A stretch of DNA of 64,000 bases, taken from assembly GCA_963749075.1 (NCBI GenBank), contig CAVVLJ010000023.1:69269-133268 (forward strand), read 5' to 3'. Source of the DNA: an uncultured Pseudomonadota bacterium (lineage in GTDB: Bacteria; Pseudomonadota; Alphaproteobacteria; JACZXZ01). A program made the position numbers and the translations under genes. Under the pieces are notes generated by a model. That model was not told where the DNA came from, did not search any database, and saw nothing but the letters and a program-made list of their open reading frames with translations. Below, piece after piece: positions 1,685-50,240 of the stretch (its first letter is position 1; each line of letters begins with the position of its first letter).

Positions 1685-2508
1685 GGGTCTGTACCCGCAT
1701 AATGTCTTGAAAAAGTTGTCCGAATGTGATTCACCGTGGTTGGAGGTGGATCATGCGGTTTGATTTGAGCGACGAGGAATGGGCGGTTCTTGAGCCGTTG
1801 ATGCCGGGCCTTCGCAAGAAGGCGCGAGAGGATGATCGCCGGATCATGAATGGCATCTTCTACGTGCTGCGCACCGGCATGCCGTGGCGAGATTTGCCGG
1901 AGCGCTATGGGCCTTGCACGACGGTCTACAATCGCTTCAACCGCTGGTCTCGCCGCGGCATCTGGAAGCGGATTTTCGACGCGCTGGCCGCGACATCGCA
2001 CGATAGCCTCTATCTGATCGACAGCACCATCGTGAAAGCGCATCGCGCGGCGAGCGGCGCAAAAGGGGGGAGAAAAATCAGGCGATCGGTATTAGCCGGG
2101 GCGGGCGCAGCACGAAGATCCATGCGGTCGTCGACGGCAAAGGCCGCCCGCTGAACTTCATCGTCACGGGCGCACAGGTCCATGACAGCCAAGTCGTCGA
2201 AGCGGTGCTGGACACGCCCAAGCCGCCCCTCGCCGTCGCGGCCGACAAGGCTTATGACAGCCAAAAGGTCCGCCAGCAGATCAGGGACGAAGGTGCCTTG
2301 CCCGTCATCCCCAGCCGCAGCAATGCCACCAAGAAAGCCTATTGTCCCAAGCGCATCTATCGCAGGCGCCACAAGATCGAAAATTACTTCTGCCGCATCA
2401 AGGATTGGCGGCGCATCGCAACCCGATACGACAAGCTGGCCAGAAACTTCCTTGCCGCCGCAGCCCTCGTCGGAGCACTCTACTGGATCAAATTGTGAGT
2501 CCAGACCC
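1685..2508 (+). mobile_element. IS5-family insertion sequence (IS427-like group), 824 bp
   Basis: Imperfect terminal IRs GGGTCTGTACCCGCA and reverse complement GGGTCTGGACTCACA; flanking TA at 1683-1684 and 2509-2510; two-part transposase. Confidence 0.92.
1753..2498 (+). CDS. IS5-family transposase, two ORFs joined by a probable programmed frameshift
   Basis: orfA MRFDLSDEEW...LRTGMPWRDLPERYG...IDSTIVKAHRAASGAKGG; slippery AAAAGGGGGGAGAAAAA at ~2061-2077; orfB ADKAYDS...RHKIENYFCRIKDWRRIATRYDK. Confidence 0.9.
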
Positions 2509-2688
2509 TAATGGAAAGGGCGGCGAAGTGAGAATGAGATTCACCTTGCCTCGAGCTCGAGCTAGTTCGTGGTGACTAAGGGCATCTTCGATGGTCCCAC
2601 TGATCATCTTACCGAGGTTAGTGCGGTATGCACGTGTGACCTCTCCGTTGCGACGCTTAGCTTTCGGCCTTAGCGAACTCTCTGGCAA
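2509..2688 (-). pseudogene. N-terminal fragment of a beta-class N4C/N6A DNA methyltransferase, cut by IS5
   Basis: GKVNLILTSPPFPL matches amino-MTase motif IV (SPPF, M.PvuII-like); the IS sits directly after it. Confidence 0.75.
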
Positions 2689-3032
2689 GTGTCGCTCCGC
2701 GTAATAAGGTTATCCGATGGGGTGGGGCGGACGGATCGTATCCGATATTTTTCAGGCGTCGACCGTAGTGGTGCTCGCGTACCTAGAATAGCATTGAGTA
2801 GGTTCTCGCAAAAGGGAGGGCGTTCATCAAGGCGCTGCTGGGTCGGGGCGAGCATGGGCCTCAGACGTTGTGGTTCGAGGAAGATCGATTTCGAGGAGAC
2901 GAGTAAAGTGCCATGGGCCCGACGTGGGAAATTGCCAATGTCGCACGCATGGTGGATGACCGGCAGGCGACGCGGGAAGCAGCATGAGCGTTGAAAAGCA
3001 TTGAGTTTACTGCCCGATTATCCTATTGTCTA

Positions 3033-3047
3033 GAACAAATAAGGAAC
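3033..3047 (+). promoter_or_regulatory. Alphaproteobacterial LexA (SOS) box
   Basis: GAAC-AAATAAG-GAAC is a perfect GAAC-N7-GAAC, directly after a -35-like TTGTCT and ~100 bp upstream of the 3146 ATG. Confidence 0.7.
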
Positions 3048-3145
3048 TCTGGTCCCTGCGAACACTATAGGTAGTGGCTATTATGGATTTCTTTCACAAA
3101 ATGTGACAGGGTAAGATGCGGATGCGTCGGGCAAGGGGGACTGCG

Positions 3146-3379
3146 ATGCGAATAAAAATCACTAAGCGTGAGGAAGGATCGATTCCGTCGGAGACAGTCG
3201 TTACGATTCTGACGACGCGCGGACCGGAAGAAGTTGTCGTCCACGCCACCCAAGCGTCAGCGGCCAGTGTCGAGGCTGGTTATATCGGCGAGAAGGATGA
3301 TCAGGTCCTGGTAGAACTTCCTCGCGAGACCCTCTCCGGTCGGTGGAGAGTGTGGGTGCCCAAAACAGCGGTCGCATAA
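3146..3379 (+). CDS. Small hypothetical protein (77 aa, beta-rich)
   Basis: RBS AAGGGGGA before ATG 3146; MRIKITKREEG...VLVELPRETLSGRWRVWVPK; 26 bp upstream of dcd. Confidence 0.75.
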   Translation: MRIKITKREEGSIPSETVVTILTTRGPEEVVVHATQASAASVEAGYIGEKDDQVLVELPRETLSGRWRVWVPKTAVA

Positions 3380-3405
3380 TCGGTTCAGCCCAGGGGAAGG
3401 GGCCG

Positions 3406-3942
3406 ATGATACTGACGGATCGTGAAATCCAAATTTTCATCGCGAACAAACAGATTACGATCGATCCCGAGCCGTCGATAGATGCCTACAGCTCCACTAG
3501 CCTCGACCTCACCCTCGGTGAAAGGGGAGAAATTTGGAAGGACCTGCCCGGTCAACCGATCCAACCCGATGCTAAGGGCTATAATTTCAGGCAATTGGCG
3601 GCGCGAAGAGACAAGGTTGCGCTGGACGGATTCCCCTTCAAATCGAAAGCTTTGCTCCTTGCGTGGACGCGTGAGACCGTAGACCTGCCTTATACGTCTC
3701 GCATCGCTGCCAGGGTCGAAGGCAAAAGCGGATTGGCGCGCTTAGGAATGTTAATTCACATGACCGCGCCCACGATCCACGCGGGGTTCAAAGGCCAGAT
3801 ACAATTGGAAATGTACAACCTCGGCCCCTATGACGTTATTCTCGACGCCGGCATGCCAATTTGCCAATTGATTTTTGAAATAACATTCGGAACGCCTGCA
3901 AAGGGCTATGTCGGCCAATTCGCGGGACAAGCGGCAAGATAG
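3406..3942 (+). CDS. dcd: dCTP deaminase (trimeric dUTPase superfamily), accessory copy
   Basis: MILTDREI start, SLDLTLG, EGKSGLARLG, HMTAPTIHAGFKGQIQLEMYN, ICQLIFE; catalytic Ser/Arg/Glu equivalents appear retained. Confidence 0.9.
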   Translation: MILTDREIQIFIANKQITIDPEPSIDAYSSTSLDLTLGERGEIWKDLPGQPIQPDAKGYNFRQLAARRDKVALDGFPFKSKALLLAWTRETVDLPYTSRIAARVEGKSGLARLGMLIHMTAPTIHAGFKGQIQLEMYNLGPYDVILDAGMPICQLIFEITFGTPAKGYVGQFAGQAAR

Positions 3943-4275
3943 CAATTCAGCTACTCCAGCTTTCGCTTTCACATCGGCCCACCACCGTCCGGCCGGGAGC
4001 GTGCCCGGCCCACCCGCCTCCGGAAAGCCCTGCTTGGTCATGGACCCGCTCCCCATCTTTCATTGCAGCTGTCCCATTGCTGGGCTAGTGTCCCGGCCGC
4101 AAAGCGCCCCGTTGCGCGCCGATAGCGGGACGATCCCGCTCCTCGATCGGCGAGCAGTCTCGGGTACGGACTCCCAGTCACGCGGCTCGGCAGGCTCAAG
4201 GCGCACGGGACTCGGTGCGGCGGCCAGGCGGCTTCGCTCAACGCGAAAGGCCCGCGATCTCGAAAGGAAAACGCA

Positions 4276-5280
4276 GTGCTCAAGCTCGGGTACAAGGCGT
4301 CGGCGGAGCAATTCGGGCCGCGCGAGCTCTTGAAGTTCTCCTGCCAGGCGGAGGCGTCGGGCTTCGACTCCGTCTTCGTCAGCGACCATTTCCAGCCCTG
4401 GCGCCACCACGGCGGCCACGCGCCCTATTCCTTCGCCTGGCTCGGGGCGCTCGGCGCCAGCACCTCGCGCGTCGTCCTCGGCACCAGCGTGGTGACGCCG
4501 ACCTTCCGCTACCACCCCTCCATCGTGGCGCAAGCCGTGGGGACGCTCGCCGTGATGTTCCCGGGCCGCGTCATCCTCGGCGTCGGCACCGGCGAATCGC
4601 TCAATGAGGTGCCGGCCCTCGGCATGAAGTGGCCGGGCTTCAAGGAGCGCCACGGCCGGCTCAAGGAGGCGATCGAGCTCATCAAGCAGCTCCTCTCCGG
4701 CGAGCGCATCAGCTACGAGGGCGCTTATTATCGCACCGCCAATGCCACGATCTACGACCGCCCGGAGGCGCCGGTGCCGATCTACGTCGCGGCCTCGGGC
4801 CCGACCGCGGCCAAGCTCGCGGGCGAGGTCGCGGACGGCTTCATCTGCACGAGCGGCAAGGCGCCCGCCCTCTATAACGAGACGCTGCTGCCCAACGTCG
4901 AGGCCGGCCTCGCGGCCTCGGGGCGCGCCAAGGACGCCATCGAGCGCATGATCGAGATGAAGGTCTCGTTCGACCACGACCGCGCCCGCGCCATGGAGGC
5001 GACGCGCCATTGGGCGGCACTCGCCCTCTCGCCTGAGGAGAAGACGGGGGTCGAGGACCCGATCGAGATGGAGCGCCTCGCCGACGCGCTGCCGCTCGAG
5101 CGGGCGGCAAGCCGCTGGATCGTCTCGACCGATCCCGAGGAGCACATCGAGAAGCTCAAGCCCTATCTCGATCTCGGCTTCAACCATCTCGTCTTCCATG
5201 CGCCCGGCCCCGACCAGGAGCATTTCCTCCGCCTCTATGGCGCCGAGGTGCTGCCTCGCCTGCGTCAGCGCTTCGGCTGA
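4276..5280 (+). CDS. fgd: F420-dependent glucose-6-phosphate dehydrogenase (LLM family)
   Basis: LKLGYKASAEQFGPRELL, VSDHFQPWRH, LGTSVVTPTFRYHP, GVGTGESLNE, DGFICTSGK, DPIEMER, NHLVFHAPG are all Fgd signatures. Confidence 0.92.
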   Translation: MLKLGYKASAEQFGPRELLKFSCQAEASGFDSVFVSDHFQPWRHHGGHAPYSFAWLGALGASTSRVVLGTSVVTPTFRYHPSIVAQAVGTLAVMFPGRVILGVGTGESLNEVPALGMKWPGFKERHGRLKEAIELIKQLLSGERISYEGAYYRTANATIYDRPEAPVPIYVAASGPTAAKLAGEVADGFICTSGKAPALYNETLLPNVEAGLAASGRAKDAIERMIEMKVSFDHDRARAMEATRHWAALALSPEEKTGVEDPIEMERLADALPLERAASRWIVSTDPEEHIEKLKPYLDLGFNHLVFHAPGPDQEHFLRLYGAEVLPRLRQRFG

Positions 5281-5375
5281 GCGGGCATCGCCGCCGCCCG
5301 TGCTTGCGTGCGGCCGAATTGCGCGACATGCTGCCGCCGCACGCGACCGCTGCTGAGGCTTGAGGCACGCCGCAG

Positions 5376-6146
5376 ATGGAACGCAACACGGTGAAGCTCG
5401 TGGCCGTGTCGGGGATGCCGCTCGTGGCGGCGGGCGACGATCTCGCGGCACTGGTGATCGCGGCGCTCGAGGCGGGCGGGCATGCCCCGGCCGACGGCGA
5501 CGTGCTGGTGATCGCGCAGAAGGTGGTATCCAAGGCGGAAGGTCGCTATGTCGACTTGGCGTCGGTGCGGCCCTCGGAGCGCGCGCGAGAGCTTGCCGCG
5601 GCCGTCGACAAGGACCCGGCCATGATCGAGGTGGTGCTCTCGGAATCGCGGCGCGTGCTGCGCCACCGGCCGGGCGTGCTGATCGTCGAGCATCGTCTCG
5701 GCTTCGTCATGGCCAATGCCGGGATCGATCACTCGAACGTGGAGCAGGGCGGGGGTCCGGGCCGCGTGCTCCTTTTGCCGCGCGATCCCGATGCTGCCGC
5801 CGAAGCGTTGCGCCAGCGCCTCGCCGGCCACTTCGGCACGGCGCTCGCGGTCATCGTCAGCGACAGCTTCGGGCGCGCCTGGCGCAACGGGACGGTGGGC
5901 GTGGCACTGGGTGCCGCCGGTCTGCCCGCACTCCTCGACCTGCGCGGCCGGCCCGATCTCTACGGCAATGCGTTGAGGGTGACGCAGACCGGCTTCGCCG
6001 ACGAGATCGCCGCCGCAGCCTCGCTCCTCATGGGCCAGGCCGACGAGGGCCTGCCGGTCGTGCTCGTGCGCGGGCTCTCCTGGCAAGGTGCTGCGCTGCC
6101 GGCCGCGGCACTTGTGCGCAAGGCCGACGAGGATCTCTTCCGATGA
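5376..6146 (+). CDS. cofE: Coenzyme F420-0:L-glutamate ligase
   Basis: GDVLVIAQKVVSKAEGR, ANAGIDHSN, SDSFGRAWRNG, ADEIAAAASLLMGQADEGLPVV. Confidence 0.93.
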   Translation: MERNTVKLVAVSGMPLVAAGDDLAALVIAALEAGGHAPADGDVLVIAQKVVSKAEGRYVDLASVRPSERARELAAAVDKDPAMIEVVLSESRRVLRHRPGVLIVEHRLGFVMANAGIDHSNVEQGGGPGRVLLLPRDPDAAAEALRQRLAGHFGTALAVIVSDSFGRAWRNGTVGVALGAAGLPALLDLRGRPDLYGNALRVTQTGFADEIAAAASLLMGQADEGLPVVLVRGLSWQGAALPAAALVRKADEDLFR

Positions 6147-7141
6147 CGGCGCCCCCGGCAGGCGACGAGGGTCGCGTCCTCGTCCTCTCGGGCGGCGTCG
6201 GCGGCGCCAAGCTCGCGCTCGGCCTGGCGCGCGTGCTGGCACCCGGCCGGCTCGTGGCGGTCGCCAATACGGGCGACGATTTCGAGCATCTCGGCCTCGC
6301 CGTCTCGCCCGATCTCGACACCCTCATGTACGTGCTCGCGGGCCTCGACAATCCGCAGACCGGCTGGGGGCGCAAGGACGAGAGCTGGACCTTCATGGCA
6401 GCACTCGCGGCACTCGGCGGCGAGACCTGGTTCCGCCTGGGCGACGGCGACCTCGCGACGCACGTGGAGCGCACGCGGCGGCTGGCGGCGGGCGAGCCGC
6501 TCTCGCGCATCGCCGCCGATTTCTGCCGCCGCCTCGGCATCGCGACGCGGCTCCTCCCCATGTCGGACGACCCGGTGCGCACGCGCGTGAGGACCGCGGA
6601 CGGCTGGCTGCCCTTTCAGGAATATTTCGTCCGCCGGCGCTCCGAGCCTCGCGTCCTCGGCTTCGCTTTCGAGGGCGCCGATCGCGCGAAGCCTCACCCC
6701 GATTTCCTCGCCGCCCTGCGCGATCCGGATTTGCGCGCCGTGGTGGTCGCACCCTCCAACCCCTTCATCAGCATCGATCCGATCCTGGCATTGCCCGGCG
6801 TGCGCGCGGCGCTGGCGGCAGCGCCGGCGCCGGTCGTGGCCGTCTCTCCCATCATCGGCGGACGCGCGGTCAAGGGGCCCACCGCCAAGATGATGGGCGA
6901 GCTTGGCCTGCCGCTAAGCGCTGCCGCGGTCGCGCGCCATTATGGCGCACTCCTCGATTGCTACATCGTAGACGAGCGGGACAGCGCTGCTGCCGCCGAG
7001 CTCGAGGTGCCCGTGGTCGCGGCCAAGATCCTGATGACGAGCCTGGCCGAGCGCGAGGCGTTGGCGCGCGCGGTGCTGGCGGCGGCGGATGCCGTGCCGC
7101 GCGCGGCGGCCGTCCGCCGCCGGGGCCGTGGCGCTCTATGA
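6143..7141 (+). CDS. cofD: 2-phospho-L-lactate/PEP transferase CofD/FbiA
   Basis: LSGGVGGAKL, NTGDD, SPDLDT, WFRLGDGDLATH, PSNPFISIDPIL, VKGPTAKMM; ATGA overlap with cofE. Confidence 0.93.
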   Translation: MTAPPAGDEGRVLVLSGGVGGAKLALGLARVLAPGRLVAVANTGDDFEHLGLAVSPDLDTLMYVLAGLDNPQTGWGRKDESWTFMAALAALGGETWFRLGDGDLATHVERTRRLAAGEPLSRIAADFCRRLGIATRLLPMSDDPVRTRVRTADGWLPFQEYFVRRRSEPRVLGFAFEGADRAKPHPDFLAALRDPDLRAVVVAPSNPFISIDPILALPGVRAALAAAPAPVVAVSPIIGGRAVKGPTAKMMGELGLPLSAAAVARHYGALLDCYIVDERDSAAAAELEVPVVAAKILMTSLAEREALARAVLAAADAVPRAAAVRRRGRGAL

Positions 7142-7836
7142 GTGCCGCGGGCGGCATCTGGGCTGCCGTGCCGGTCAAGGATACGCGCCAGGCGAAGCAG
7201 CGCCTCGCCGGGCTGCTGCCGCCCGAGCTGCGCCGTCCCCTGGCACTCGCCATGCTCGAGGACGTGCTCGCCGCCCTCGCCGCTGCTCCCGGCCTCGCCG
7301 GCATCCTGGTGGTGACCGAGGATGTGGACGCCCGCGCGCTGGCCGAGCGCTTCGGCGCAGGCACCGTGGCCGAGGACGCGAACGCGGGCCACACGGCCGC
7401 GGTCGCCGCGGCGGCGCGGCGCCTCGTCAAGGAGGGCCGCGCCGGCATGCTCGCGGTGCCGGGCAACGTCCCGCTCGCGACCGCGGCAGAGGTCGAGCGT
7501 TTTCTCGCCGCCCACGGCCCGGCACCCGCCTTCACAATCGCACCGGCGCACGACGAGCGCGGCTCGAATGCCGTGCTGGTCTCGCCGCCCGATGCCGTGC
7601 CGCTCTCTTTCGGCAACGACAGCTTCTGGCCGCACTTGCGCGCCGCGGAAGTGCGCGGCATCCGCCCCGCGGTCGTGCGCTTGGCTGGCTTCGGGCTCGA
7701 CATCGACGGCCCCGAGGACCTGGCGGCCTTCGCCGCGATCGGCCGGCACACCAAGGCGCTCGCCTGCCTCGAGAGCTTCGGCATCGCAAGGACGCTGCGC
7801 GCTTCGCGCGCGGGGGCGACAGCCGGGCGGGACTGA
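7138..7836 (+). CDS. cofC: 2-phospho-L-lactate/PEP guanylyltransferase CofC/FbiD
   Basis: [42 protein letters not shown]; PGNVP where homologues usually have PGD.P. Confidence 0.9.
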
Positions 7837-7855
7837 CACCAGGGAGGAGCGGCAC

Positions 7856-8878
7856 ATGCAGATCGGCGTGATCGGCCTCGGCCGGATGGGCGGCAACATC
7901 GCGCGCCGGCTCATGCGCCACGGCCACGAGTGCCTCGTCCATGACCGCGAGGAAGCCGCCACGGATCGCCTCGCTGCCGAGGGTGCCAGGCCGGTGCGGC
8001 GTCTCGCGGATTTCGTCGAAGCGCTCGCCGCACCTCGCGCCCTCTGGGTCATGCTGCCGGCGGGCGAGGCGACCGAGGCGGCGATTGGCGAGCTCGGCGC
8101 GCTGCTGGCTGAGGGCGACATCGTGATCGACGGCGGCAACTCCCACTTCCACGACGACGTGCGCCGCGCAGCATGGCTCAAGGAGAAGGGCATCCGCTAC
8201 GTCGACGTGGGCACCAGCGGCGGCGTCTGGGGGCTCGAGCGCGGCTATTGCATGATGATCGGCGGCGAGCCCGAGGCCGTGGCACACCTCGACCCGGTCT
8301 TCGCGGCACTCGCCCCCGGCCTCGGCGACATCCCGCGCACGGTGGAACGCGGCTCGCGCGACGGGCGCGCCGAGCGCGGCTATCTCCATTGCGGACCGCA
8401 CGGCGCCGGACACTTCGTCAAGATGGTCCACAACGGCATCGAGTACGGCCTGATGCAAGCCTATGCCGAGGGCTTCGATATTCTGCGCAGCGTCGCCAAG
8501 GCGGAGATCCCTGCTTCGCGGCGCTACCGCCTCGATCTCGCCGCCATCGCCGAGGTGTGGCGCCGCGGCAGCGTCATCTCCTCCTGGCTCCTCGACCTCA
8601 CGGCGTCAGCACTCGCCGAGGATGGCGAGCTCAGGCACTATTCGGGCTTCGTCGAGGATTCGGGCGAAGGGCGCTGGACGGTGCTGGCCGCCGTCGAGGA
8701 GGCGGTGCCGGCCGACGTGCTGACCGCGGCACTCTACGCGCGCTTCCGCTCGCGCCAGGAGCACACCTTCGCCGAGCGCCTGCTCTCAGCCATGCGCTTC
8801 AAGTTCGGCGGCCACGTCGAGCAGGCGGCGGGCAGTCCCTCTCCCGCAAGCGGGAGAGGGAGGGACCCGCGGCCGTAA
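7856..8878 (+). CDS. gnd: 6-phosphogluconate dehydrogenase (decarboxylating, short type)
   Basis: [56 protein letters not shown]. Confidence 0.95.
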
Positions 8879-8980
8879 GGCCGTGGGAGGGTGAGGGACG
8901 ACGCCGGCATCGGGCATTCCCTCACCCTTCCCATCCCTTCGGGATGGGCCCCTTCCCTCTCCCGTAAACGGGAGAGGGAT
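8836..8980. repeat. REP-like palindromic miniature element (CCCTCTCCCG..CGGGAGAGGG family)
   Basis: Terminal hairpins TCCCTCTCCCGCAAGCGGGAGAGGGA and TCCCTCTCCCGTAAACGGGAGAGGGA with internal GGGAGGGTGAGGG/CCCTCACCCTTCCC arms. Confidence 0.8.
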
Positions 8981-9012
8981 TTCTTGGTTTAGAGGAAGGA
9001 AAGGACGACGAC

Positions 9013-9741
9013 ATGGCGGACGATAGGGCACAGCTTCACGTGGCCGAGAGCGCCGAGGCGCTCGCCCGCGACGCCGCCGATTTTCTCTGCAGCGCGGCCA
9101 CCGCCGCTGAGGCACGCTTCACCGTGTGCCTCGCCGGCGGCTCGACGCCCAAGCGGCTCTACGAGCTCCTCTCCGGTCCCGACTATGCCGGCCCCTTCCC
9201 CTGGGCACGAGCCCATTGGTTCCTCGGCGACGAGCGTTTCGTGCCGCACGACGACCGAGAGAGCAATTACCGCATGGTGCGCGAGACGCTCCTCGCGCGC
9301 GCGCCGGTGCCTCAAGAGAACGTCCACCCGGTGCCGACCGAGGGCCTGACGCCGGAGGCCGCGGCCGCGGCCTACGAGCAGGAGCTCAAGCGCCATTACG
9401 GCTCGGCTACGCTCGAGCGGGAGCGCCCGCTCTTCGACGTGACCCTCTTGGGCCTCGGCGAGGACGGCCACACGGCGTCGCTCTTCCCCGGCCATGCGGC
9501 GCTCGAGGAGCGCCAACGTTGGGCGCTCGCGGTGGCGGGCGCCAAGCCCGAGGTGCGCATCACGCTCACCTATTCCGTGCTCGAGAGCAGCCGGGAGGTG
9601 GTCTTCATGGTGGCGGGTGCCGGGAAGCGCGAGAGGCTCGCCGAGGTGCGGCGCGGCGGCGCGCTCCCGGCGGCGCGCCTCAAGCCCGTCGGCCGGCTCC
9701 ACTGGTTCGCCGACCGCGCGGCGGCTCCCGAAGGGGCCTGA
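9013..9741 (+). CDS. pgl: 6-phosphogluconolactonase
   Basis: LAGGSTP, GDERFVP, SNYRM, DVTLLGLGEDGHTASLFP, RITLT. Confidence 0.95.
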   Translation: MADDRAQLHVAESAEALARDAADFLCSAATAAEARFTVCLAGGSTPKRLYELLSGPDYAGPFPWARAHWFLGDERFVPHDDRESNYRMVRETLLARAPVPQENVHPVPTEGLTPEAAAAAYEQELKRHYGSATLERERPLFDVTLLGLGEDGHTASLFPGHAALEERQRWALAVAGAKPEVRITLTYSVLESSREVVFMVAGAGKRERLAEVRRGGALPAARLKPVGRLHWFADRAAAPEGA

Positions 9742-9751
9742 GCGCCGCGGC

Positions 9752-10528
9752 TCAGGCGAGCGTCATCTCGGTCAGCGGCACCACGCGCACGCCGGCCGCC
9801 TCGAGGCCCTGGCGCACGGCGCGCGCGGCCTCGACGGCACTCGGCTCGTCGCCGTGGACGCAGAGGCTGTCGAGCTTCTGCGGGATGTGCTTGCCGTTGC
9901 GCGAGACGATCTCGCCGTCGAGCACCATGGCGACGACGCGGCGCTTGATCTCCTCCGCGTCGTGCAGCACGGCACCCGCGATCTTGCGCGAGGTGAGGTT
10001 GCCGTCGTCGTCGTAGAGGCGGTCGCAGAAGCCCTCGCGCGCGAGCGGCAGGCCGAGCTCGAGTGCCGCGTGCTCCATCTCCGAGCCGGCCAGCGCCACA
10101 TAGATCATCTTTGGGTCGACCGTCTTCATGGCGCGGCCGATGGCGAGCGCCATGTCGCGGTTCTCCGCCGCCATGTTGTTGAGCGAGCCGTGCGCCTTCA
10201 AGTGGCTCACCTTGACGCCGGCATAGGCGGCGATCGCCTGCAGCGCGCCGATCTGGTAGGCGACCATGTATTCGAGGTCGCGCAAGCCCATGTCGATGCG
10301 GCGGCGCCCGAAGCCCCAGAGGTCGTTGAAGCCCGGGTGCGCGCCGATGCTGACGCCCTTCTCCTTGGCGCGCATCACCGTGTGATGCATGACGTTGGAA
10401 TCGCCCGCGTGGAAGCCGCAGGCGACGCTGGCGGAGCCGATGACGTCGAGGAGGGCGTCGTCGTTGCCGATCTTGAAGGCCCCGAAGCTCTCGCCCATGT
10501 CCGCGTTGAGATTGACTTCCTTGGCCAT
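9752..10528 (-). CDS. pxpA: 5-oxoprolinase subunit A (LamB/YcsF)
   Basis: NLNADMGESFG, ACGFHAGD, GAHPG, HLKAHGSLNN, SLCVHGD. Confidence 0.92.
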   Translation of the reverse strand: MAKEVNLNADMGESFGAFKIGNDDALLDVIGSASVACGFHAGDSNVMHHTVMRAKEKGVSIGAHPGFNDLWGFGRRRIDMGLRDLEYMVAYQIGALQAIAAYAGVKVSHLKAHGSLNNMAAENRDMALAIGRAMKTVDPKMIYVALAGSEMEHAALELGLPLAREGFCDRLYDDDGNLTSRKIAGAVLHDAEEIKRRVVAMVLDGEIVSRNGKHIPQKLDSLCVHGDEPSAVEAARAVRQGLEAAGVRVVPLTEMTLA

Positions 10529-10594
10529 CGCCGCACTCCTCCTCAAGCCAGGCCGCCGGCCCTGGTCTTCCGCCGGCCCCTGTGGTACGAAGCC

Positions 10595-10611
10595 GATCTG
10601 GTACTAAGATC
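10595..10611. promoter_or_regulatory. Palindrome in the divergent pxpA/pxpB intergenic region, possible operator
   Basis: GATCT-GGTACTA-AGATC dyad. Confidence 0.3.
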
Positions 10612-10679
10612 GAGACGATCATAAGATAGGCCTTTCCGGCCGATCAATCGAATCATCGGCTCCGTGGCGGGCGGTCGAG

Positions 10680-11402
10680 GTGACGGCGAGATTCCTCTCG
10701 AGCGGCGACAGCGCGCTCGTGGTCGAGTTCGGCGAGCGCATCGAGCGGCGGCTGAGCGACGAGGTGTTGCGGCTCGATGCGCGCGTCCGCGAGGCGGGGC
10801 TTTCCGGCGTCGTCGAGACCGTCCCCACCCTGCGCTCGCTCATGGTGCATTACGATCCCTTGCGTACGAGTGCCGCGGAGCTCCAAGCGGCGATCGAGCG
10901 GCTCATGGGCGCCGCGGCGGCGCTCGAGCGCAAGGGGCACCTCTGGCGTCTGCCGGTGTGCTACGAGGACGACTACGCCCCCGACCTCGCCGAGGTCGCC
11001 GAGAGGAAGGGGCTGGCGCCCGAGCAGGTCGTCTCGCTCCATTCGGGCACCCGTTATCACGTCTACATGATCGGCTTCCTCCCCGGCCTGCCCTACATGG
11101 GCGACCTGCCGGAGGCGCTGGCGCTGGCGCGGCGCGCCGACCCGCGCGTGCGGCTTCCCGCCGGCGCGGTCGCCATCGCCACCACCATGACCATCGTCTA
11201 TCCGCTGGAGAGCCCGGGCGGCTGGCATCTCATAGGGGCTACGCCCGTCCGCCTCTTCGACGCGAGCTGGCCGCAGCCCGCACTCCTCGCCCCCGGCGAT
11301 GCGGTCGAGTTCGAGCCCATCGACAAGCGCGCATTCGCCAAGCTCAAGACCGCGGTCGAGCGCGGCAAGTATCAGCCCCACCACGAGGAGCTGGCACCTT
11401 GA
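10680..11402 (+). CDS. pxpB: 5-oxoprolinase subunit B
   Basis: GDSALVVEFG, ETVPTLRSL, YMIGFLPGLPY, YPLESPGGWHLIG. Confidence 0.92.
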   Translation: MTARFLSSGDSALVVEFGERIERRLSDEVLRLDARVREAGLSGVVETVPTLRSLMVHYDPLRTSAAELQAAIERLMGAAAALERKGHLWRLPVCYEDDYAPDLAEVAERKGLAPEQVVSLHSGTRYHVYMIGFLPGLPYMGDLPEALALARRADPRVRLPAGAVAIATTMTIVYPLESPGGWHLIGATPVRLFDASWPQPALLAPGDAVEFEPIDKRAFAKLKTAVERGKYQPHHEELAP

Positions 11403-12433
11403 GCGCCGCCCTCAAGGTCGTAGCACCCGGCCTGCACAGCACGGTGCAGGACCTAGGCCGCTTCGGCTATCAGGCGGCGGGCGTGCCGGTGTCGGGCGCC
11501 CTCGACGCCGTGAGCCTGCGCCTCGCCAACCGCCTCGCCGGCAATGGCGACAATGCCGCGGCCCTCGAGATCCTCTACCACGGCCCGACCTTCGAGGTGG
11601 AGGCAGCGAGCGTGCGCGCAGCACTCGCGGGCGGCGGCGCCGTGCTCGAGCTCGTGGGCGAGCGCGCGCAACTGCTCGGCGGCTGGAGGAGCCACAGCTT
11701 CCGCCGCGGCGAGCGCTTCCGCGTGAGATTCCTCGAGGAGGCCTCCTGCTGCTATCTGGCGCTCGAGGGCGGCATCGCGGTCGAGCCCTGTCTCGGCAGT
11801 GCCGCCACTTACGTGCGCGGCGGCTTCGGCGGCTTCAAGGGGCGCGCGCTTCAAGCGGGCGATCTCCTGCCGCTCGCCCGCGAGAGCGTGGAGGAGCGTC
11901 CCGAGCTCGCACTTTTAAGCCCGCCCGGGGCGGGGCGCGAGCGGCCGCTCCGCGTCGTGCTCGGGCCGCAGCAGGATCATTTCAGCGAGGCGGCCTTGGA
12001 GCACCTCCTCGGCGCCGGGTTCGCCGTCTCGAAGGACGCCGACCGCATGGGCTTGAGGCTCGATGGGCCGCGGCTCGCTCACCGGGACGGCTACGACATC
12101 GCCTCCGACGGCATCGCCACCGGCGCCATCCAGGTGCCCGGCTCGGGCCAGGCCATCCTCTTGCTCGCCGATCACCAGACGACCGGCGGCTATCCCAAGA
12201 TCGCCACGGTGATCTCGGCCGACCTGCCGCTCGCCGGCCGCCGCCGGCCGGGCGATGCCGTGCGCTTCGCCGCCGTCGAGGTGGCGGAGGCGGAGGCCTT
12301 GCGCCGCGCCGAGGAGGCGGCGTTCCAGGCGCTCGCCGCCAGCTTCGTTACGGCCGAAGCCGCCGCCGGCTTCGATCCCGAGCGCCTCTACCGCACGAAC
12401 CTCATCAGCGGCGTGGTCTCGGGCCATGAGTGA
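11399..12433 (+). CDS. pxpC: 5-oxoprolinase subunit C
   Basis: TTG start; TVQDLGRFG, DRMGLRL, GAIQVPGSGQ, DHQTTGGYPKIA. Confidence 0.92.
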   Translation: MSAALKVVAPGLHSTVQDLGRFGYQAAGVPVSGALDAVSLRLANRLAGNGDNAAALEILYHGPTFEVEAASVRAALAGGGAVLELVGERAQLLGGWRSHSFRRGERFRVRFLEEASCCYLALEGGIAVEPCLGSAATYVRGGFGGFKGRALQAGDLLPLARESVEERPELALLSPPGAGRERPLRVVLGPQQDHFSEAALEHLLGAGFAVSKDADRMGLRLDGPRLAHRDGYDIASDGIATGAIQVPGSGQAILLLADHQTTGGYPKIATVISADLPLAGRRRPGDAVRFAAVEVAEAEALRRAEEAAFQALAASFVTAEAAAGFDPERLYRTNLISGVVSGHE

Positions 12434-12472
12434 GGGGGTATGACCGGCGATCAAGCAGGCTAGGGTGGCATC

Positions 12473-12792
12473 ATGGGTCAATTGGCGAAGACCTTCCGGC
12501 TGAGCCGCATCCCGCTCTATCTCCAGGTGGCGGCCACGCTCGCCACGCCGCACTCGCCGTCCTCGCCGCGATGAAGGACATCGGCATCGCGTCCGCGCGC
12601 CAGACCCTCGTCATCGCGAGCGCCGATCCCGAGACGGCGCGGCTCTTGAAGGTGCCGCTCAATTCGCCGACCGCCGAGGCCCATTGCGTGGTCATCGACC
12701 GCCGCGGCTTCGCCATCTACATTGCCGACATCATCTACCGCGGCGATTGCATCCGCATCGAGACCAGCCTGCGCGCGCCGCCGGAGCGCTGA
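12473..12792 (+). pseudogene. GntR/HutC (UTRA) regulator with internal deletion and frameshift
   Basis: Frame from ATG 12473 gives MGQLAKTFRLSRIPLYLQVAATL (start of a GntR wHTH); at ~12540 another frame gives ARQTLVIASADPETARLLKVP...IYRGD (UTRA C-terminus). Confidence 0.75.
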
Positions 12793-12811
12793 GGGAGCCC
12801 GAGGGAAGTCC

Positions 12812-15163
12812 ATGAGCGACACGGCCAAGGGCGTCGGCGCGCGCATGGAGCGCAAGGAGGACGAGCGCCTGCTGCGCGGCCGCGGCCGCTACGTGGCCGA
12901 CATCCGCCTCCCCGGCATGCGCGAGGTCGCCTTCGTGCGGAGCCCCCTCGCGCACGCGCGCATCAGGGGCATCGCGGTGCCCGAGCGCCTGAGCAGCTCC
13001 GTCTTCACCGCGGCCGATCTGGCCGGCGTCAAGCCGATCCGCGCCGTCTCGGGCCTGCCGGGCTTCAAGCCCTCGGTGCAGCCGGCCCTCGCCACGGGCA
13101 AGGTGCGCCACGTGGGCGAGCTCGTGGCGATGTGCGTGGCCGACAGCCGCGCCGCTGCCGAGGACATTGCCGCTGCCGTCACGCTCGATCTCGAGGAGCT
13201 CCCCGCCGTCCACGACATGCTGCAGGGGCGTACTGCCGGCGCGCCGCTCCTCCACGAGGAATGGGGCGACAACATCTTCCTCGAGACGCGCATAGACGGC
13301 GACATCGAGGCGGTGGCGGCCGAAGCCCCCATCCGCGTCAGCCGCGAGTTCCGTACCGCCCGGCAATGCATGGCGCCGCTCGAAGGGAAGGGCGTGCTCG
13401 CCGAATGGGACAACCGCCTGGACCAGCTCGTCGTCTATAGCGCTACGCAGATCCCGCACATCGTGCGCACGGGGCTTGCCGAGTGCCTCGGCCTCGAGCA
13501 GGGCCAAGTGCGCGTGATCTCGCCCGACGTGGGCGGCGGCTTCGGATATAAGGGCATCCTCGCCGCCGAGGAGATCGCGGTCGCCTGGCTCGCCATCAAG
13601 CTGGGCCGCCCGGTGCGCTGGATCGAGGACCGGCGCGAGCACTTGACGGCCGCGGCCAATTGCCGCGAGCACCACTACCGCATCGCCGCCTACGCGGCGC
13701 GCGACGGCAGGCTCCTGGCCGTCGATTGCGAGGCGACCGTCGATTCCGGCGCCTATTCGGCCTATCCCTTCTCCGCCTGCCTCGAGGCGGCGCAGGTGGC
13801 GAGCATCCTCCCGGGTCCTTACGACTTCGCCGCCTACCGCTGCCGCACCTATTCGGTCGCCACCAACAAATGCCCGATCCTGCCCTACCGCGGCGTGGCG
13901 CGCACCGGCGTCTGCTTCGCCATCGAGCTCCTGCTCGATGCGATTGCGCGCGAGGCAGGGCTCGAGCCCTACGAAGTGCGCCTCAAGAACCTGGTGCCGC
14001 CCGAGCGCATGCCCTTCGAGAACATCACGAATAAGCACTTCGACAGCGGCGACTACCCGCAATGCCTCAAGCGCGCGGTCGCGGCCATCGGTCTCGATGG
14101 GTTGCGCGCGCGCCAGCGCCGCGGCGAGCCCGACGGAAGGCTCTTGGGCGTCGGCCTTGCGATCTTCTGCGAGCAGGCGGCGCACGGCACCTCGGTCTAC
14201 GCCGGCTGGGGCATTCCCATGGTGCCGGGGCACGAGCAGGCGACCGCGCGCCTGACGCCCGACGGCGGGCTCGAGCTCCGCTTGGGCGTGCACTCCCACG
14301 GCCAGGGCCTCGAGACGACGCTGGCCCAGGTCGCGCATGAGGTGCTGGGCGTCGACCCCGCCAGGATCAAGACCGTGCTCGGCGATACGGCGCTGACGCC
14401 CTACTCGACGGGCACCTGGGGCTCGCGCTGCATGGTGATGGCGGGGGGTGCGGTGACCCGCGCCTGCCGGGAGATCGCCCGGCGCGCCGCGCGCATCGGC
14501 GCCAAGCTCCTGCAGACCGAGGAAAGCATGGTCGTCGTTGCCGAGGGCGAAGTGCGCGGGCCTCGCGGCGCGGTCACCCTCGCCGAGATCGCCAAGGTCT
14601 GGTACCTGCGGCCGCAGGATCTCCCCGCCGACGTGGACCCCGGCGGGCTCGAGGCCACGGCCGGCTACAAGCCGCAACGCGACAGCGGCACCTTCAGCTA
14701 CGCGGCGCACGCGGCCGTCGTCGCCGTCGATGCCGAGACGGGCGAGGTCGAGATCCTCGACTATGCCATCGTCGAGGACGGCGGCGTGCTGGTCAATCCC
14801 ATGATCGTCGACGGGCAGGTCTTTGGCGGTGCCGCCCAGGGCATCGGCACGGCGCTCTACGAGGAGATGCCCTTCGACGCGAGCGGCCAGCCACTCGCCT
14901 CGACGCTCTCGGATTACCTCCTCCCCGGCGCCACCGAGGTCCCCGACATCCGCATCGAGCATATGGAGACGCCGTCGCCCTATACCGAGTTCGGCGTCAA
15001 GGGCATCGGCGAGGGCGGCGCCATCGGCCCGCCGGCAGCGCTCGGCAATGCGATCAACGACGCGCTGCGTGCGCTCGGCGCCGAGCTGGCGGCGACGCCG
15101 ATGACGCCACGCCGCATCCTCGAGGCGATCGCCGCGGCGAAGCTTCGGCGCGGCCCGGCATGA
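12812..15163 (+). CDS. Xanthine dehydrogenase-family molybdopterin-binding large subunit
   Basis: RKEDERLLRGRG, DVGGGFG, active-site loop PYRGVAR, HGQGLETT, KGIGEGG. Confidence 0.9.
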   Translation: MSDTAKGVGARMERKEDERLLRGRGRYVADIRLPGMREVAFVRSPLAHARIRGIAVPERLSSSVFTAADLAGVKPIRAVSGLPGFKPSVQPALATGKVRHVGELVAMCVADSRAAAEDIAAAVTLDLEELPAVHDMLQGRTAGAPLLHEEWGDNIFLETRIDGDIEAVAAEAPIRVSREFRTARQCMAPLEGKGVLAEWDNRLDQLVVYSATQIPHIVRTGLAECLGLEQGQVRVISPDVGGGFGYKGILAAEEIAVAWLAIKLGRPVRWIEDRREHLTAAANCREHHYRIAAYAARDGRLLAVDCEATVDSGAYSAYPFSACLEAAQVASILPGPYDFAAYRCRTYSVATNKCPILPYRGVARTGVCFAIELLLDAIAREAGLEPYEVRLKNLVPPERMPFENITNKHFDSGDYPQCLKRAVAAIGLDGLRARQRRGEPDGRLLGVGLAIFCEQAAHGTSVYAGWGIPMVPGHEQATARLTPDGGLELRLGVHSHGQGLETTLAQVAHEVLGVDPARIKTVLGDTALTPYSTGTWGSRCMVMAGGAVTRACREIARRAARIGAKLLQTEESMVVVAEGEVRGPRGAVTLAEIAKVWYLRPQDLPADVDPGGLEATAGYKPQRDSGTFSYAAHAAVVAVDAETGEVEILDYAIVEDGGVLVNPMIVDGQVFGGAAQGIGTALYEEMPFDASGQPLASTLSDYLLPGATEVPDIRIEHMETPSPYTEFGVKGIGEGGAIGPPAALGNAINDALRALGAELAATPMTPRRILEAIAAAKLRRGPA

Positions 15164-15996
15164 AGCCCGCCGCCTTCGCTTACGCGCGCCCGGCGAGCCT
15201 CGCGGAAGCGGGCGAGCTATTGCGGAGTGCTGACGGCGCCAAGGCGCTCGCCGGCGGCCAGTCGCTCGGCCCCATGCTCAACCTGCGCCTCGTCGAGCCG
15301 CGGCTCCTCGTCGATCTGACCGGCATCGCGGAGCTCACGCGCGTCGAGGAGGAGCGCGACGCCGTGACACTCGGCGCCTGCATCACCCATGCCGACATCG
15401 AGGACGGCCGCGTCCCCGATCCCACGGGCGGCCCGCTCGCCGCGATTGCTGCCGGCATCGCCTATCGCGCCGTGCGCAACCGCGGCACCATCGGCGGCAG
15501 CCTCTGCCACGCCGATCCGGCGGCCGACTGGGTCTCGGTGCTCGCCTGCCTCGGCGCCGAGGCGGTGATCGCGGGCGCTTCCGGGCGCCGCATCCTGCCG
15601 GTCGAGCGCTTCATCCGCGGCGCCTTCGAGGCAGCACTCGAGCCGGGCGAGCTCCTCTCGGCGGTGCGCATCCCGCGCCTCTCGCCGAGTGCGCGCTGGG
15701 GCTTTTGCAAGCTCTGCCGCAAGCCGGGCGAGTTCGCCCATGCGCTGGCGGCGGTGGCGTGCGATCCCGCCCGCGGCTTCCTCCGTCTCGTGCTCGGCGC
15801 CACGGGCGGCGCTCCGATGCTGTTGCCGGATGCCGCGTCCTTCTTCGAAGAGGCGGGCGGGACGGGGACGCTCGGCCGCTTCCGGCACGCGCACGCGGCG
15901 GAGCTTTTAGCCCAAGCCGTCCCTGGCGATGCGATCGAGCGGCAGTGGCGGCTCGCGGCCCTCAAGCGCGCCGCGGCCGCGGCGGGCGCCGCATGA
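15160..15996 (+). CDS. FAD-binding (CoxM/CutM-like) subunit
   Basis: MKPAAFAYARP, LAGGQSLGPMLNLR, RNRGTIGGSLCHADPAAD. Confidence 0.9.
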   Translation: MKPAAFAYARPASLAEAGELLRSADGAKALAGGQSLGPMLNLRLVEPRLLVDLTGIAELTRVEEERDAVTLGACITHADIEDGRVPDPTGGPLAAIAAGIAYRAVRNRGTIGGSLCHADPAADWVSVLACLGAEAVIAGASGRRILPVERFIRGAFEAALEPGELLSAVRIPRLSPSARWGFCKLCRKPGEFAHALAAVACDPARGFLRLVLGATGGAPMLLPDAASFFEEAGGTGTLGRFRHAHAAELLAQAVPGDAIERQWRLAALKRAAAAAGAA

Positions 15997-17195
15997 CGAC
16001 GGTCCGTCTCAGCGTGAACGGCAAGCCGGTCGAGGCGGAGGTCGAGCCGCGTCTGCAGCTCGCCGAATTCTTGCGCGAGCATCTCCTCGAGACCGGCACT
16101 CATCTCGGCTGCGAGCACGGCATCTGCGGCGCCTGCACGGTGCTGATCGACGGCGCGCCCGCGCGCTCCTGCATCGCCTACGCGGTCGCTTGCGAGGGTG
16201 CCGAGGTCACCACCATCGAGGGGCTGGACGGCGACGCGACCATGGCGAAGCTGCGCCGCGCCTTCGCGCGCGAGCACGCGCTGCAATGCGGCTTCTGCAC
16301 GCCCGGCATGCTGGCGAGCGCGCGCGACATCGTGCTGCGCCTGCCCGACGCCGATGCGCGGCGCATCCGCCTCGAGCTCGCGGGCAACCTCTGCCGCTGC
16401 ACCGGCTATGTCGGCATCGTGCGCGCGATTGCGAGCGTGCTCGAGGAGAACCGCCGCGTCGGGCGCGCAACAAGCCCGGCAGCACCACGGCGCCTCGGGC
16501 CCGTCGGCGCGCGGCCGGCCGTGGCAGCGGCTCAACCGGCATCCGCGATTGCCGCGGCGGCCGCCGCGGTGCCGCAACCTTCGAGTGCCGTTGGCCGGCC
16601 GGCCGAGGCCTTCAAGCCCGCCAGAGTCATAGCACGGTCCTTCGTCCTCAAGGCGCCGCCGGAGCGCGCCTGGCCGTGCTTCAAGGAAGTGGAGCTCCTC
16701 GCCGCCTGTTTGCCGGGTGCTTCGCTGACGAGGCCCGTGCGGGATGGCCAGCTCGAGGGCCTCTTGCGCGTGCGGCTCGGGCCCATCGCCGCCGCCTTTG
16801 CCGGCAGCGGCCAGGCGAGCTGGGACGACCGCACCTTCAGCGGCAAGCTGCGCGGCGGCGGGCGCGACCCCGCGAGCCGCTCGCAAGTCCAGGGCGAGAT
16901 CGCCTTCGCGCTCGCCGCGGCCAGGGACGGCGGCACGCGCGTCGAGGTCGAGATCGGCTTCGCGCTCGCAGGTCCCCTCGCCCAGTTCGGCCGCGGCGCC
17001 ATCGTCGACGACCTCGCGGCTCGTCTCACCGCGGAGTTCGCGCGCAACCTCGACGCCCGCATCGCGGCACGGCTCGGCGGCAGAGACAGCGCAGCGCCCG
17101 CCGCCGCCGCAGAGCTCCGCGCCGGCTCGCTCCTCCTCTCGGTCATATGGGCGCGCGTCAAGTCGTGGCTCAAGCGCGCGCTCGGGCGGCGCTGA
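15993..17195 (+). CDS. [2Fe-2S] small subunit fused to CoxG/SRPBCC domain
   Basis: GCEHGICGAC, QCGFCTPG, NLCRCTGY; Ala/Pro linker; then CoxG-like LAACLPGA...VRLGPI...LAQFGR. Confidence 0.88.
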   Translation: MTTVRLSVNGKPVEAEVEPRLQLAEFLREHLLETGTHLGCEHGICGACTVLIDGAPARSCIAYAVACEGAEVTTIEGLDGDATMAKLRRAFAREHALQCGFCTPGMLASARDIVLRLPDADARRIRLELAGNLCRCTGYVGIVRAIASVLEENRRVGRATSPAAPRRLGPVGARPAVAAAQPASAIAAAAAAVPQPSSAVGRPAEAFKPARVIARSFVLKAPPERAWPCFKEVELLAACLPGASLTRPVRDGQLEGLLRVRLGPIAAAFAGSGQASWDDRTFSGKLRGGGRDPASRSQVQGEIAFALAAARDGGTRVEVEIGFALAGPLAQFGRGAIVDDLAARLTAEFARNLDARIAARLGGRDSAAPAAAAELRAGSLLLSVIWARVKSWLKRALGRR

Positions 17196-17296
17196 GAGAT
17201 CGCGCGTCTACGTCTGCAGATGAAGACGCCGGATCAAATTCGCTTCCCCTCCAGAGTGCTGCAGCGCGGCCTGAAACATAGTCCTTCAAAACGGCG

Positions 17297-17314
17297 TTGA
17301 CAGGTTATATACAA
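17297..17314 (+). promoter_or_regulatory. sigma70 -35 box overlapped by a HutC/GntR-type operator
   Basis: Perfect TTGACA at 17297-17302 followed by GGTTATATACAA (GT-TATAT-AC dyad). Confidence 0.5.
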
Positions 17315-17412
17315 TATGTGAGCCTCGCCCTTGCCTTTGCCGGCACCGGCTGCGAAACTCGCATGGCCGTTGAGGGGGGAGCCGAGCGCCGGCGTCTTGT
17401 GGGGCGGAGGCC

Positions 17413-17805
17413 ATGAAGCAGGCCGCGGCGGTGCGCACATCTCCCGACCATCCGGCGAAGCTGATCGCGCGGATGTGGCGCGGCCAGACCGAGGCGAGCA
17501 AGGCCGAGGAATATGCGCGCTACCTCTACGAGGCAGGGGTGACGAAGATCGCGGCAATCCCCGGAAACCGAGGCGTCCAGATGCTGCGCCAGATCCACGA
17601 CGGCGTCGCGGACTTCGCCGTGCTCTCCTACTGGGACTCGTTCGATGCCATCAAGCGCTTTGCCGGCGAGGACTATGGCAAGGTCCGTCATCTGCCAAGG
17701 GATCCCGAATACATGATCGGAGCGGAGCCGGCGGTCCGCCATTTCGAGGTCATCGTCAACGACTGGACTGAGACGGTGCCCAAATCTCGCCAAAATATAG
17801 GTTAG
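17413..17805 (+). CDS. ABM-like (antibiotic biosynthesis monooxygenase fold) protein
   Basis: IARMWRG...IPGNRG...LSYWDSFDAIKRFAGED...VRHFEV. Confidence 0.75.
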   Translation: MKQAAAVRTSPDHPAKLIARMWRGQTEASKAEEYARYLYEAGVTKIAAIPGNRGVQMLRQIHDGVADFAVLSYWDSFDAIKRFAGEDYGKVRHLPRDPEYMIGAEPAVRHFEVIVNDWTETVPKSRQNIG

Positions 17806-17938
17806 ACTGAGAGCGCGCGACGGGACGCCGCACACGACGAGCAAGAAGCGAGGCGCCCGAAGACAAGGGATGGCGTGCGCCCAGCGAGCGCAGGAGAGGC
17901 TCGCAATCGGGCGCAAATCTCGCAATGACAACCGGGAG

Positions 17939-19195: not shown

Positions 19196-19273
19196 TCCTC
19201 GGCCGGAATAGCCTCGACAACCCGCGATGGCGCCTTGCGGCGCCATCGCGGCCGTCCTATTGATCGAGCGGTG

Positions 19274-34422: not shown

Positions 34423-34706
34423 CGGGATGACCCCTGCTAGGAGTGAAGTTTGACGAACTCACGCACGGCAGTCTTGACCGCTTCCCAAGCCTTCCTAGCC
34501 TTGTCAGCTGCATCATACTCGTCCATCGAGGGATTCAATTGAGAACGACCATGCGCGATTAGCACAATCTTTCCGTTGAGCACGATCTGCGCCTGGAGAT
34601 GTTCATCCCTTGTCCGCTCAAATCCGGCGCACAAATCGGCCCACTTGAGCTGGTCCTGGTTGTTTGGACAGGTGGCAGCGGATTTAAGGTGTATTCCGGA
34701 TGCTGA

Positions 34707-36885: not shown

Positions 36886-36911
36886 AGGCTACCTTTGCTT
36901 TGTATATAAGT

Positions 36912-37500: not shown

Positions 37501-37529
37501 ATCCTGACGGCGGAGAGGAGTGATGCCCC

Positions 37530-47134: not shown

Positions 47135-49468
<2,334 letters not shown>

Positions 49469-50186: not shown

Positions 50187-50240
50187 TTTGTCGAGTGCTG
50201 GCCGAAATTGATGGGGTCCACATCCGTGCATGGGCATCTC

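Follow-up and report, generated by a model that had tools for sequence, protein, structure and literature searches.

The window analysed here is a 64,000-nucleotide stretch that forms the final 64 kb of the 133-kb contig CAVVLJ010000023.1 (C23), part of the assembly GCA_963749075.1 (G000; 5.49 Mb, 23 contigs) of an uncultured alphaproteobacterium. Near its left end lies a block of six co-oriented genes, fgd-cofE-cofD-cofC-gnd-pgl, in which genes for making the cofactor F420 stand together with genes for the oxidative branch of the pentose-phosphate pathway (Table 1). All six open reading frames, described in an earlier note made from the sequence alone, were found again. Each product exceeds the curated NCBIfam cut-off of its family, and the Pfam scan is concordant.

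Table 1. Genes and other features in and around the F420 block, with positions in the window.
Feature	Position	Strand	Evidence
fgd, glucose-6-phosphate dehydrogenase that depends on F420 (334 aa)	4276..5280	+	TIGR03554, 462.3 bits (cut-off 420)
cofE, F420-0:gamma-glutamyl ligase, short form (256 aa)	5376..6146	+	TIGR01916, 279.4 bits (cut-off 180.65)
cofD, 2-phospho-L-lactate transferase	6143..7141	+	TIGR01819, 303.8 bits (cut-off 257.45)
cofC, guanylyltransferase activating the tail precursor	7138..7836	+	TIGR03552, 135 bits (cut-off 105)
gnd, short-chain 6-phosphogluconate dehydrogenase (340 aa)	7856..8878	+	NF007161, 473 bits (cut-off 271); TIGR00872, 387 bits (cut-off 297)
pgl, 6-phosphogluconolactonase (242 aa)	9013..9741	+	TIGR01198, 198.8 bits (cut-off 124.45)
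Dispersed palindromic repeat (REP/MITE-like), 158 bp	8833..8990		Copies in congeners and own genome; fold
pxpA (LamB/YcsF), first native gene rightward	9752..10546	-	PF03746, 309.8 bits
IS5-family transposase fragment	1726..2154	+	NF033580, 135 bits, profile positions 2-114 of 258; Pfam DUF4096
dCTP-deaminase-like gene	3343-3942	+	TIGR02274, 105.6 bits; PF22769

The genes are tightly spaced. ATGA overlaps, read from the sequence, join cofE to cofD (6143-6146) and cofD to cofC (7138-7141), and the intergenic gaps from fgd to gnd measure 95, -4, -4 and 19 nt. A GGAGG precedes the start of gnd, 19 nt past cofC. A sigma-70 promoter scan of positions 3900-10700 gave no site upstream of fgd; its single hit was weak and on the minus strand. 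The complete oxidative pentose-phosphate set of Fgd, Pgl and Gnd is contained in one block, and these are the only copies in G000 that pass the cut-offs.

Fgd aligns end to end with solved F420-dependent glucose-6-phosphate dehydrogenases (443 bits with PDB 5lxe, 437 bits with 3b4y) and matches PF00296 (luciferase-like, LLM) with 218 bits. Based on the alignment with 3b4y and on one of 81 rows, it keeps the residues corresponding to His40, Trp44, Glu109, Lys198, Lys259 and Arg283 of Mycobacterium tuberculosis FGD1, the catalytic and phosphate-pocket residues of that enzyme. The LLM fold family and the NCBIfam equivalog are shared with the actinobacterial FGD1 enzymes (M. tuberculosis Rv0407, PDB 3B4Y; Rhodococcus jostii Rh-FGD1, PDB 5LXE). 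In contrast to these, the enzyme of the window is proteobacterial, carries Ser for Gly177 and Thr for His260 (discussed below), and is encoded within a cluster of cofEDC, gnd and pgl.

Fgd stands in the place of the usual glucose-6-phosphate dehydrogenase Zwf, as the earlier note had supposed: no zwf was found in G000, which is estimated to be 96.3% complete, either with hidden Markov models (HMM) or by tblastn with the Zwf of a relative. According to a review, mycobacterial Fgd works alongside an NADP-dependent Zwf, whereas none was found here. The search of G000 for the NADPH-dependent F420 reductase Fno was equally negative, with a best score of 35 bits against a cut-off of 149.8, no match at E<=1e-10 and no tblastn match. 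For Edd, the best score in the genome was 222 bits against 708. A malic enzyme gene with a fused PTA domain (MaeB-type), at 47135-49468 (+) of the window, is a plausible source of NADPH in a genome that lacks zwf.

Gnd is a member of the short-chain 6-phosphogluconate dehydrogenase (6PGDH) subfamily (PDB 6vpb, 446 bits; 6xeq, 440 bits). It shows a GLGRMG fingerprint of the GxGxxG type, and His-Asp-Arg-Glu in the beta2-alpha2 loop. In the review PMC8900737, NADP-specific 6PGDH carries Asn-Arg-Thr in this loop, an Asp at this place hinders the 2'-phosphate, and Asp-Arg-Glu together with GxGxxG is the NAD-type pattern. The Asn-Arg-Thr signature is absent from Gnd, and since Asp-Arg-Glu is found where NADP-specific enzymes have it, Gnd is predicted to prefer, probably, NAD+.

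The genome also carries genes for making the cofactor. CofC, CofD and CofE all pass the equivalog cut-offs that define F420 tail biosynthesis. CofE does not reach the cut-off of NF009810, the model for the long FbiB type, and a genome-wide search for the C-terminal reductase domain of FbiB (TIGR03553) gave at best 55 bits against 249.55; the domain that marks the dehydro-F420 (phosphoenolpyruvate, PEP) pathway of Actinobacteria is therefore found in G000 neither fused nor free. The best PDB match of CofC is 7p97 (93.5 bits), the solved CofC that activates 3-phosphoglycerate (3-PG). Compared with 7p97, it has Gly at the S162 position and His, Val and Arg at the positions of M91, C95 and H145. 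Ser162 is diagnostic of 3-PG-type CofC in Hasan et al. 2022, and the Ser or Thr expected for 3PG-F420 of the Mycetohabitans type is not present. Because of this Gly a classical tail would be expected, and the CofC residues argue for a 2-phospho-L-lactate (2-PL)/PEP-type (lactyl) one. A fused FO synthase, FbiC/CofGH (NF006687, 1159 bits), is encoded on the same contig, some 19 kb upstream of fgd (C23:52237-54681), and is flanked by two F420-type LLM genes of family TIGR03619. Scavenging of Fo, which the earlier note had kept as an option, is thus unneeded. For the use of F420H2, the candidates in G000 are an FDOR-B protein (TIGR03618) with 110 bits, plus thirteen matches of LLM type. A search for FDOR-A (PF04075) drew no match in five genomes and none in its control either, which makes this negative uninformative.

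The locus was compared with its counterparts in a sparsely sampled order, represented by 11 genomes of one family and five genera, including G000 and five congeners. CofD passes its cut-off in nine of the 11 genomes. Fno does so in nine of the ten other genomes and is always encoded between pxpA and cofE. By tblastn mapping, the family arrangement in these nine is pxpA-fno-cofE-cofD-cofC-fbiC with a convergent LLM gene, and because this arrangement is kept, the relatives would reduce F420 with NADPH through Fno. An Fgd above the cut-off is found in G000 only, and G001 and G009 are the only genomes with zwf. For both Pgl and short-chain Gnd, scores above the cut-off are limited to these three (G000, G001 and G009), which are precisely the genomes with some glucose-6-phosphate dehydrogenase. 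The five congeners encode none of the three oxidative pentose-phosphate steps (no fgd, zwf, pgl or gnd).

The site of the block in G000 is the native one. The pxpA of the window shows 86-88% protein identity and synteny with the congeners, where fno-cofE-cofD-cofC-fbiC come next; in G000 it marks the right border of a strain-specific segment. The native LLM gene, fbiC and pxpA are retained, and the roughly 24 kb between them occurs in no congener; likewise, the 18 kb upstream of the module gave no orthologous match in the congeners. The module is inverted relative to the native cofEDC of the relatives. Chromosomal site, flanks and the retained fbiC and LLM gene are therefore common to the window and the Fno cluster of its own family, whereas the window has Fgd (for glucose-6-phosphate) in place of Fno (for NADPH), the opposite orientation, additional gnd and pgl genes, and a cofEDC only 52-71% identical in protein sequence.

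This low identity is confined to the block. CofE is 68-69%, CofD 67-71% and CofC 52-54% identical to the proteins of the congeners, in comparison with 82-88% for the flanking genes. Furthermore, the congeners are no nearer to the window in CofEDC than the other genera of the family are, whereas for the flanking genes identity falls with distance as expected. In a tree of concatenated CofE, CofD and CofC (62 rows, 723 columns), a clade with 98% support unites the window with fgd-bearing loci of other lineages of Proteobacteria, for the most part Alphaproteobacteria; none of its 41 rows comes from the family of the window. Of the eight rows that represent this family, seven group apart in a clade with 95% support. 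Forcing the window together with four congeners was rejected by the approximately unbiased (AU) test (delta lnL 178.6, p-AU 1.2e-5), for a group that was named after the tree had been seen and that corresponds to the natural null of vertical descent. In the Fgd tree, the window is basal in a mainly cofE-linked alphaproteobacterial branch (SH-aLRT 94), and Gnd groups weakly (87/86) with the Gnd of other fgd loci in a tree of 15 rows.

Since the block is absent from all five congeners, replaces fno-cofEDC in inverted orientation and has a CofEDC that groups with other lineages, it is an acquired island: it is missing in close relatives and incongruent in phylogeny. At least fgd-cofEDC was acquired by transfer, replacing fno-cofEDC, and gnd and pgl were likely transferred with it. 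The earlier note had taken the backbone-like composition as a sign that the block is not a recent arrival. The composition is as it described, with a guanine-plus-cytosine (GC) content of 70-74% against 68% for the genome, and because the two are so close it offered no signal to a reader of the letters; it is uninformative on acquisition, and the conclusion drawn from it does not hold. Vertical inheritance would mean that fgd-cofEDC-gnd-pgl is ancestral and that, in every relative, fgd, gnd and pgl disappeared while fno was gained. The genome-like base composition and a genus-typical repeat already present in the block fit with such a history, but nine relatives from four genera share an identical fno-cofEDC-fbiC arrangement, CofEDC of the window is not drawn towards its congeners, and the AU test refuses the grouping. 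We regard it as very unlikely, and vertical descent was rejected on the AU test, the CofEDC tree and the common arrangement of the relatives.

The foreign character of the block does not extend to the contig. Positions 9747-20000 of the window are syntenic and 77-89% identical in DNA with all five congeners, which assigns C23 to its host, and the protein identity to the congeners of 82-88% noted above applies to pxpA, to fbiC and to the LLM gene next to it. A two-piece alpha_tmRNA (RF01849, 270.8 bits) is present in G000, on another contig; among 14 control genomes, it was matched in Caulobacter only. At gathering thresholds, Rfam had 0 matches anywhere in the window. The alphaproteobacterial host assumed earlier is thus borne out by the tmRNA and by the flanks of the block. 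The idea that C23 was placed in the wrong bin, or is DNA of actinobacterial or chloroflexal origin in an artefactual alphaproteobacterial context, can draw on the estimated contamination of the bin (5.15%) and on the position of the tmRNA on a different contig. Against the synteny and identity in five of five congeners, the likeness of fbiC, its neighbouring LLM gene and pxpA, and a genus-wide repeat inside the block itself, it is extremely improbable and was rejected. The host is a soil alphaproteobacterium, and C23 is no binning artefact. The sequencing records listed comprise two soil-metagenome DNA entries of a single study and no RNA entry.

The repeat in question lies between gnd and pgl. 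More than 100 copies, with about 80-95% identity, are found among those listed in the five congeners, and G000 has 68 matches. The folded RNA would be very stable (-118.8 kcal/mol, z = -11.1), and its end consists of a terminator-like hairpin of 11 pairs (8954-8979) followed by a T-run. The final 46 nt of gnd lie within the repeat, which thereby provides 15 C-terminal codons and the stop; in agreement with such an origin, the alignments of Gnd with the solved enzymes end at residue 323 of 340. The presence of a genus-typical repeat inside the block indicates that the block has stayed in the genome long enough for such an element to colonise it.

To see how the block compares with loci elsewhere, related fgd stretches were sought in public genomes, where they number at least 590, and the best 80 were surveyed, picked by similarity to Fgd of the window and therefore representing close relatives only; for 60 of the 80 loci, gene order can be judged from 3 kb or more of downstream flank. 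In 44 of the 80, fgd is directly followed by cofE, and 35 have fgd-cofE-cofD-cofC. Five loci show gnd-pgl-fgd and six more pgl-fgd, so that fgd stands beside pgl and/or gnd in 11 of the 80 by strict adjacency. The order of the window, with gnd-pgl behind fgd-cofEDC, occurs in none of the 80.

Two kinds of known clusters resemble the block in part. The proteobacterial fgd-cofE-cofD-cofC clusters (Bradyrhizobium, Reyranella, Stellaceae, Acetobacteraceae and others) have the first four genes in the same order and orientation, and both Fgd and CofEDC of the window branch with this group; zwf, in contrast, is present in most of those genomes (in 28 of 37 that were searched and have fgd unlinked to gnd or pgl). 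The gnd-pgl-fgd clusters of Gamma- and Alphaproteobacteria (Woeseia and metagenome-assembled genomes of Lysobacterales and Acidiferrobacterales; loci L007, L008, L018, L029 and L084) package Fgd with the next two oxidative enzymes, as the window does. Their cofEDC is elsewhere or divergent, and in the Fgd tree they sit on the other of the main branches.

The search for zwf covered the genomes of 50 of the 80 loci, the other 30 being mostly on short contigs, and zwf is missing in 18 of the 50. It is absent from nine of the 13 genomes in which fgd lies at most 3.5 kb from gnd or pgl, and from nine of the 37 others (Fisher p 0.0066 on raw counts), a contrast that amounts to 3 phylogenetically independent pairs (sign test p = 1) in genomes taken whatever their completeness. 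Counting two loci with gnd-pgl 7 kb away as linked changes the figures to 11 of 15 against seven of 35. The association between fgd linkage to gnd/pgl and absence of zwf is suggestive, a pattern and not a rule.

Parts of this arrangement have been foreseen. A 2021 review (PMC8498797) predicts Fgd in Alphaproteobacteria and says that F420 producers of this class have it besides Fno; in G000, by contrast, Fno is gone. A full-text literature search returned no account of fgd packaged with gnd and pgl, nor of zwf-less proteobacteria relying on Fgd or of a replacement of Fno by Fgd. An operon already described in Proteobacteria, the objection that the earlier note had raised against its own novelty, thus applies to the prediction of Fgd and to the widespread fgd-cofEDC clusters; the linkage to gnd and pgl, the lack of zwf and the exchange of Fno are undescribed in the literature found.

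Taken together, the block is likely to be a horizontally acquired cassette that alters how this bacterium recharges F420, with Fgd as its sole glucose-6-phosphate dehydrogenase and its sole known F420 reducer. In the proposed mechanism, Fgd would oxidise glucose-6-phosphate and pass the hydride to F420. The lactone would then be opened by Pgl, and Gnd, probably preferring NAD+, would decarboxylate 6-phosphogluconate to ribulose-5-phosphate, which could be recycled by the non-oxidative pentose pathway. Such a flux would deliver F420H2 and NADH and no NADPH from what appears to be the only oxidative pentose-phosphate branch in the genus, with the cofactor presumably made by CofE, CofD, CofC and the retained native FbiC. 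The F420H2-generating module proposed from the letters still looks like the best reading, strengthened because zwf and Fno are lacking and because the three oxidative steps occur in the order either all together or not at all.

Several observations weigh against it. The stable repeat with its terminator-like end splits gnd from pgl and rewrites the C-terminus of Gnd; a joint transcript of pgl with the five upstream genes is putative. The Gnd (15 rows) and Pgl (17 rows) trees are too small to place the origin of these two genes, the absence calls for zwf, Fno and Edd rest on draft assemblies, and the zwf contrast has the narrow base described above. Further points concern the substrate of Fgd and the role of Gnd.

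Fgd has Ser174 (in AASGP) where M. tuberculosis FGD1 has Gly177, and Thr at the position of His260. Because of these two substitutions the predicted enzyme may accept other sugar phosphates as well. Mascotti et al. 2018 assign Gly177 to the glucose-6-phosphate-specific state (FGD) and Ser to a broader F420-dependent sugar-6-phosphate dehydrogenase (FSD, their DH3 clade). In a set of 81 Fgd relatives, 43 carry Ala at this position, 31 carry Ser and 7 carry Gly, so that the proteobacterial and chloroflexal group, judged by its residues, matches neither label cleanly. One could accordingly suppose a broad FSD-like enzyme that also reduces F420 from fructose-6-phosphate or mannose-6-phosphate, with only a partial role in the pentose-phosphate pathway; both the Ser and the non-canonical make-up of the clade are in its favour. 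The enzyme nevertheless passes the Fgd equivalog cut-off, its gene is placed with the sole pgl and the sole true gnd of G000, which is sensible only for a product of glucose-6-phosphate, and even characterised FSDs favour glucose-6-phosphate in Mascotti et al. 2018. We consider this alternative quite unlikely; the change of Gly177 to Ser bears on glucose-6-phosphate specificity and not on the use of F420.

A gluconokinase (G000:C20:48925-49389; TIGR01313, 179 bits) is encoded on another contig than the module. Within the genus it occurs in this strain alone, and elsewhere in the order only in G009. Because of this second, unlinked entry to 6-phosphogluconate, Gnd could also serve in the use of gluconate. 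The block might then be chiefly a carbon route, carrying hexose or gluconate through pentoses in a genus without an oxidative branch, with F420 as an incidental acceptor and its recharging secondary. Such a role would be in agreement with the absence of zwf, pgl and gnd from the congeners and with the restriction of the gluconokinase to this strain; with no Edd, moreover, 6-phosphogluconate must exit through Gnd. What the block displaced, on the other hand, is exactly the native F420 reducer Fno, it travels with cofEDC, and the strain-specific DNA brings further F420-type LLM genes. As the chief function a carbon route is unlikely, although the two roles are not mutually exclusive, and the recharging of F420 is retained as the more probable one.

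The remainder of the strain-specific segment holds another TIGR03619 LLM gene, regulators, two ABC transporters, a Mer-like LLM gene, the IS5 fragment and, before the module is reached, a low-GC stretch that includes the dCTP-deaminase-like gene. Its first part (G000:C23:55331-69259 together with positions 1-1173 of the window) holds this second TIGR03619 LLM gene, two LysR regulators and a pot-type ABC transporter. The same region contains the Mer-like LLM gene (TIGR03555, 196 bits, below the cut-off) within an opp-type ABC transporter cluster. These upstream genes are possibly involved in F420H2-dependent uptake and catabolism. Copies of the IS5 fragment, 84-87% identical, are found elsewhere in the congener G006. 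Adjoining the fragment, positions 2001-4000 have a GC content of 56% against 68-70% and no counterpart in the congeners, and PADLOC matched none of the low-GC genes lying upstream of fgd.

Further along the window, two stretches of low GC (34000-38000 and 50000-53500; 54-62%), in which the GC3-based gene caller accepted no open reading frame, may be foreign or non-coding DNA. Gene sets for molybdoenzymes of the xanthine-dehydrogenase family lie at 12722-17281 and 53527-56300; the first adjoins pxpABC and is conserved in the congeners.

For non-actinobacterial F420 producers, no F420-reducing dehydrogenase or F420H2-dependent reductase has been studied experimentally according to the 2021 review (PMC8498797). 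The sister genomes described here amount to a natural experiment, differing at one site in Fno versus Fgd, Pgl and Gnd, and for this reason the proteobacterial F420 reducer and its metabolic cost can be addressed with defined enzymes. In biocatalysis, the block would offer a compact set of six genes to make F420 and to recharge it from glucose-6-phosphate. If Fgd is indeed the sole glucose-6-phosphate dehydrogenase and Gnd works on NAD+, the oxidative pentose branch would run without NADPH, counter to its textbook purpose. The recurrence of fgd-pgl(-gnd) in zwf-less genomes suggests a pattern beyond this strain. We tentatively propose, as a real but by no means assured possibility, that Proteobacteria possess a mobile cassette for an NADPH-free oxidative branch, with F420 at step one and NAD+ at step three, which may overwrite the Fno locus, switch the supply of F420H2 to sugar phosphate and, in many lineages, replace Zwf.

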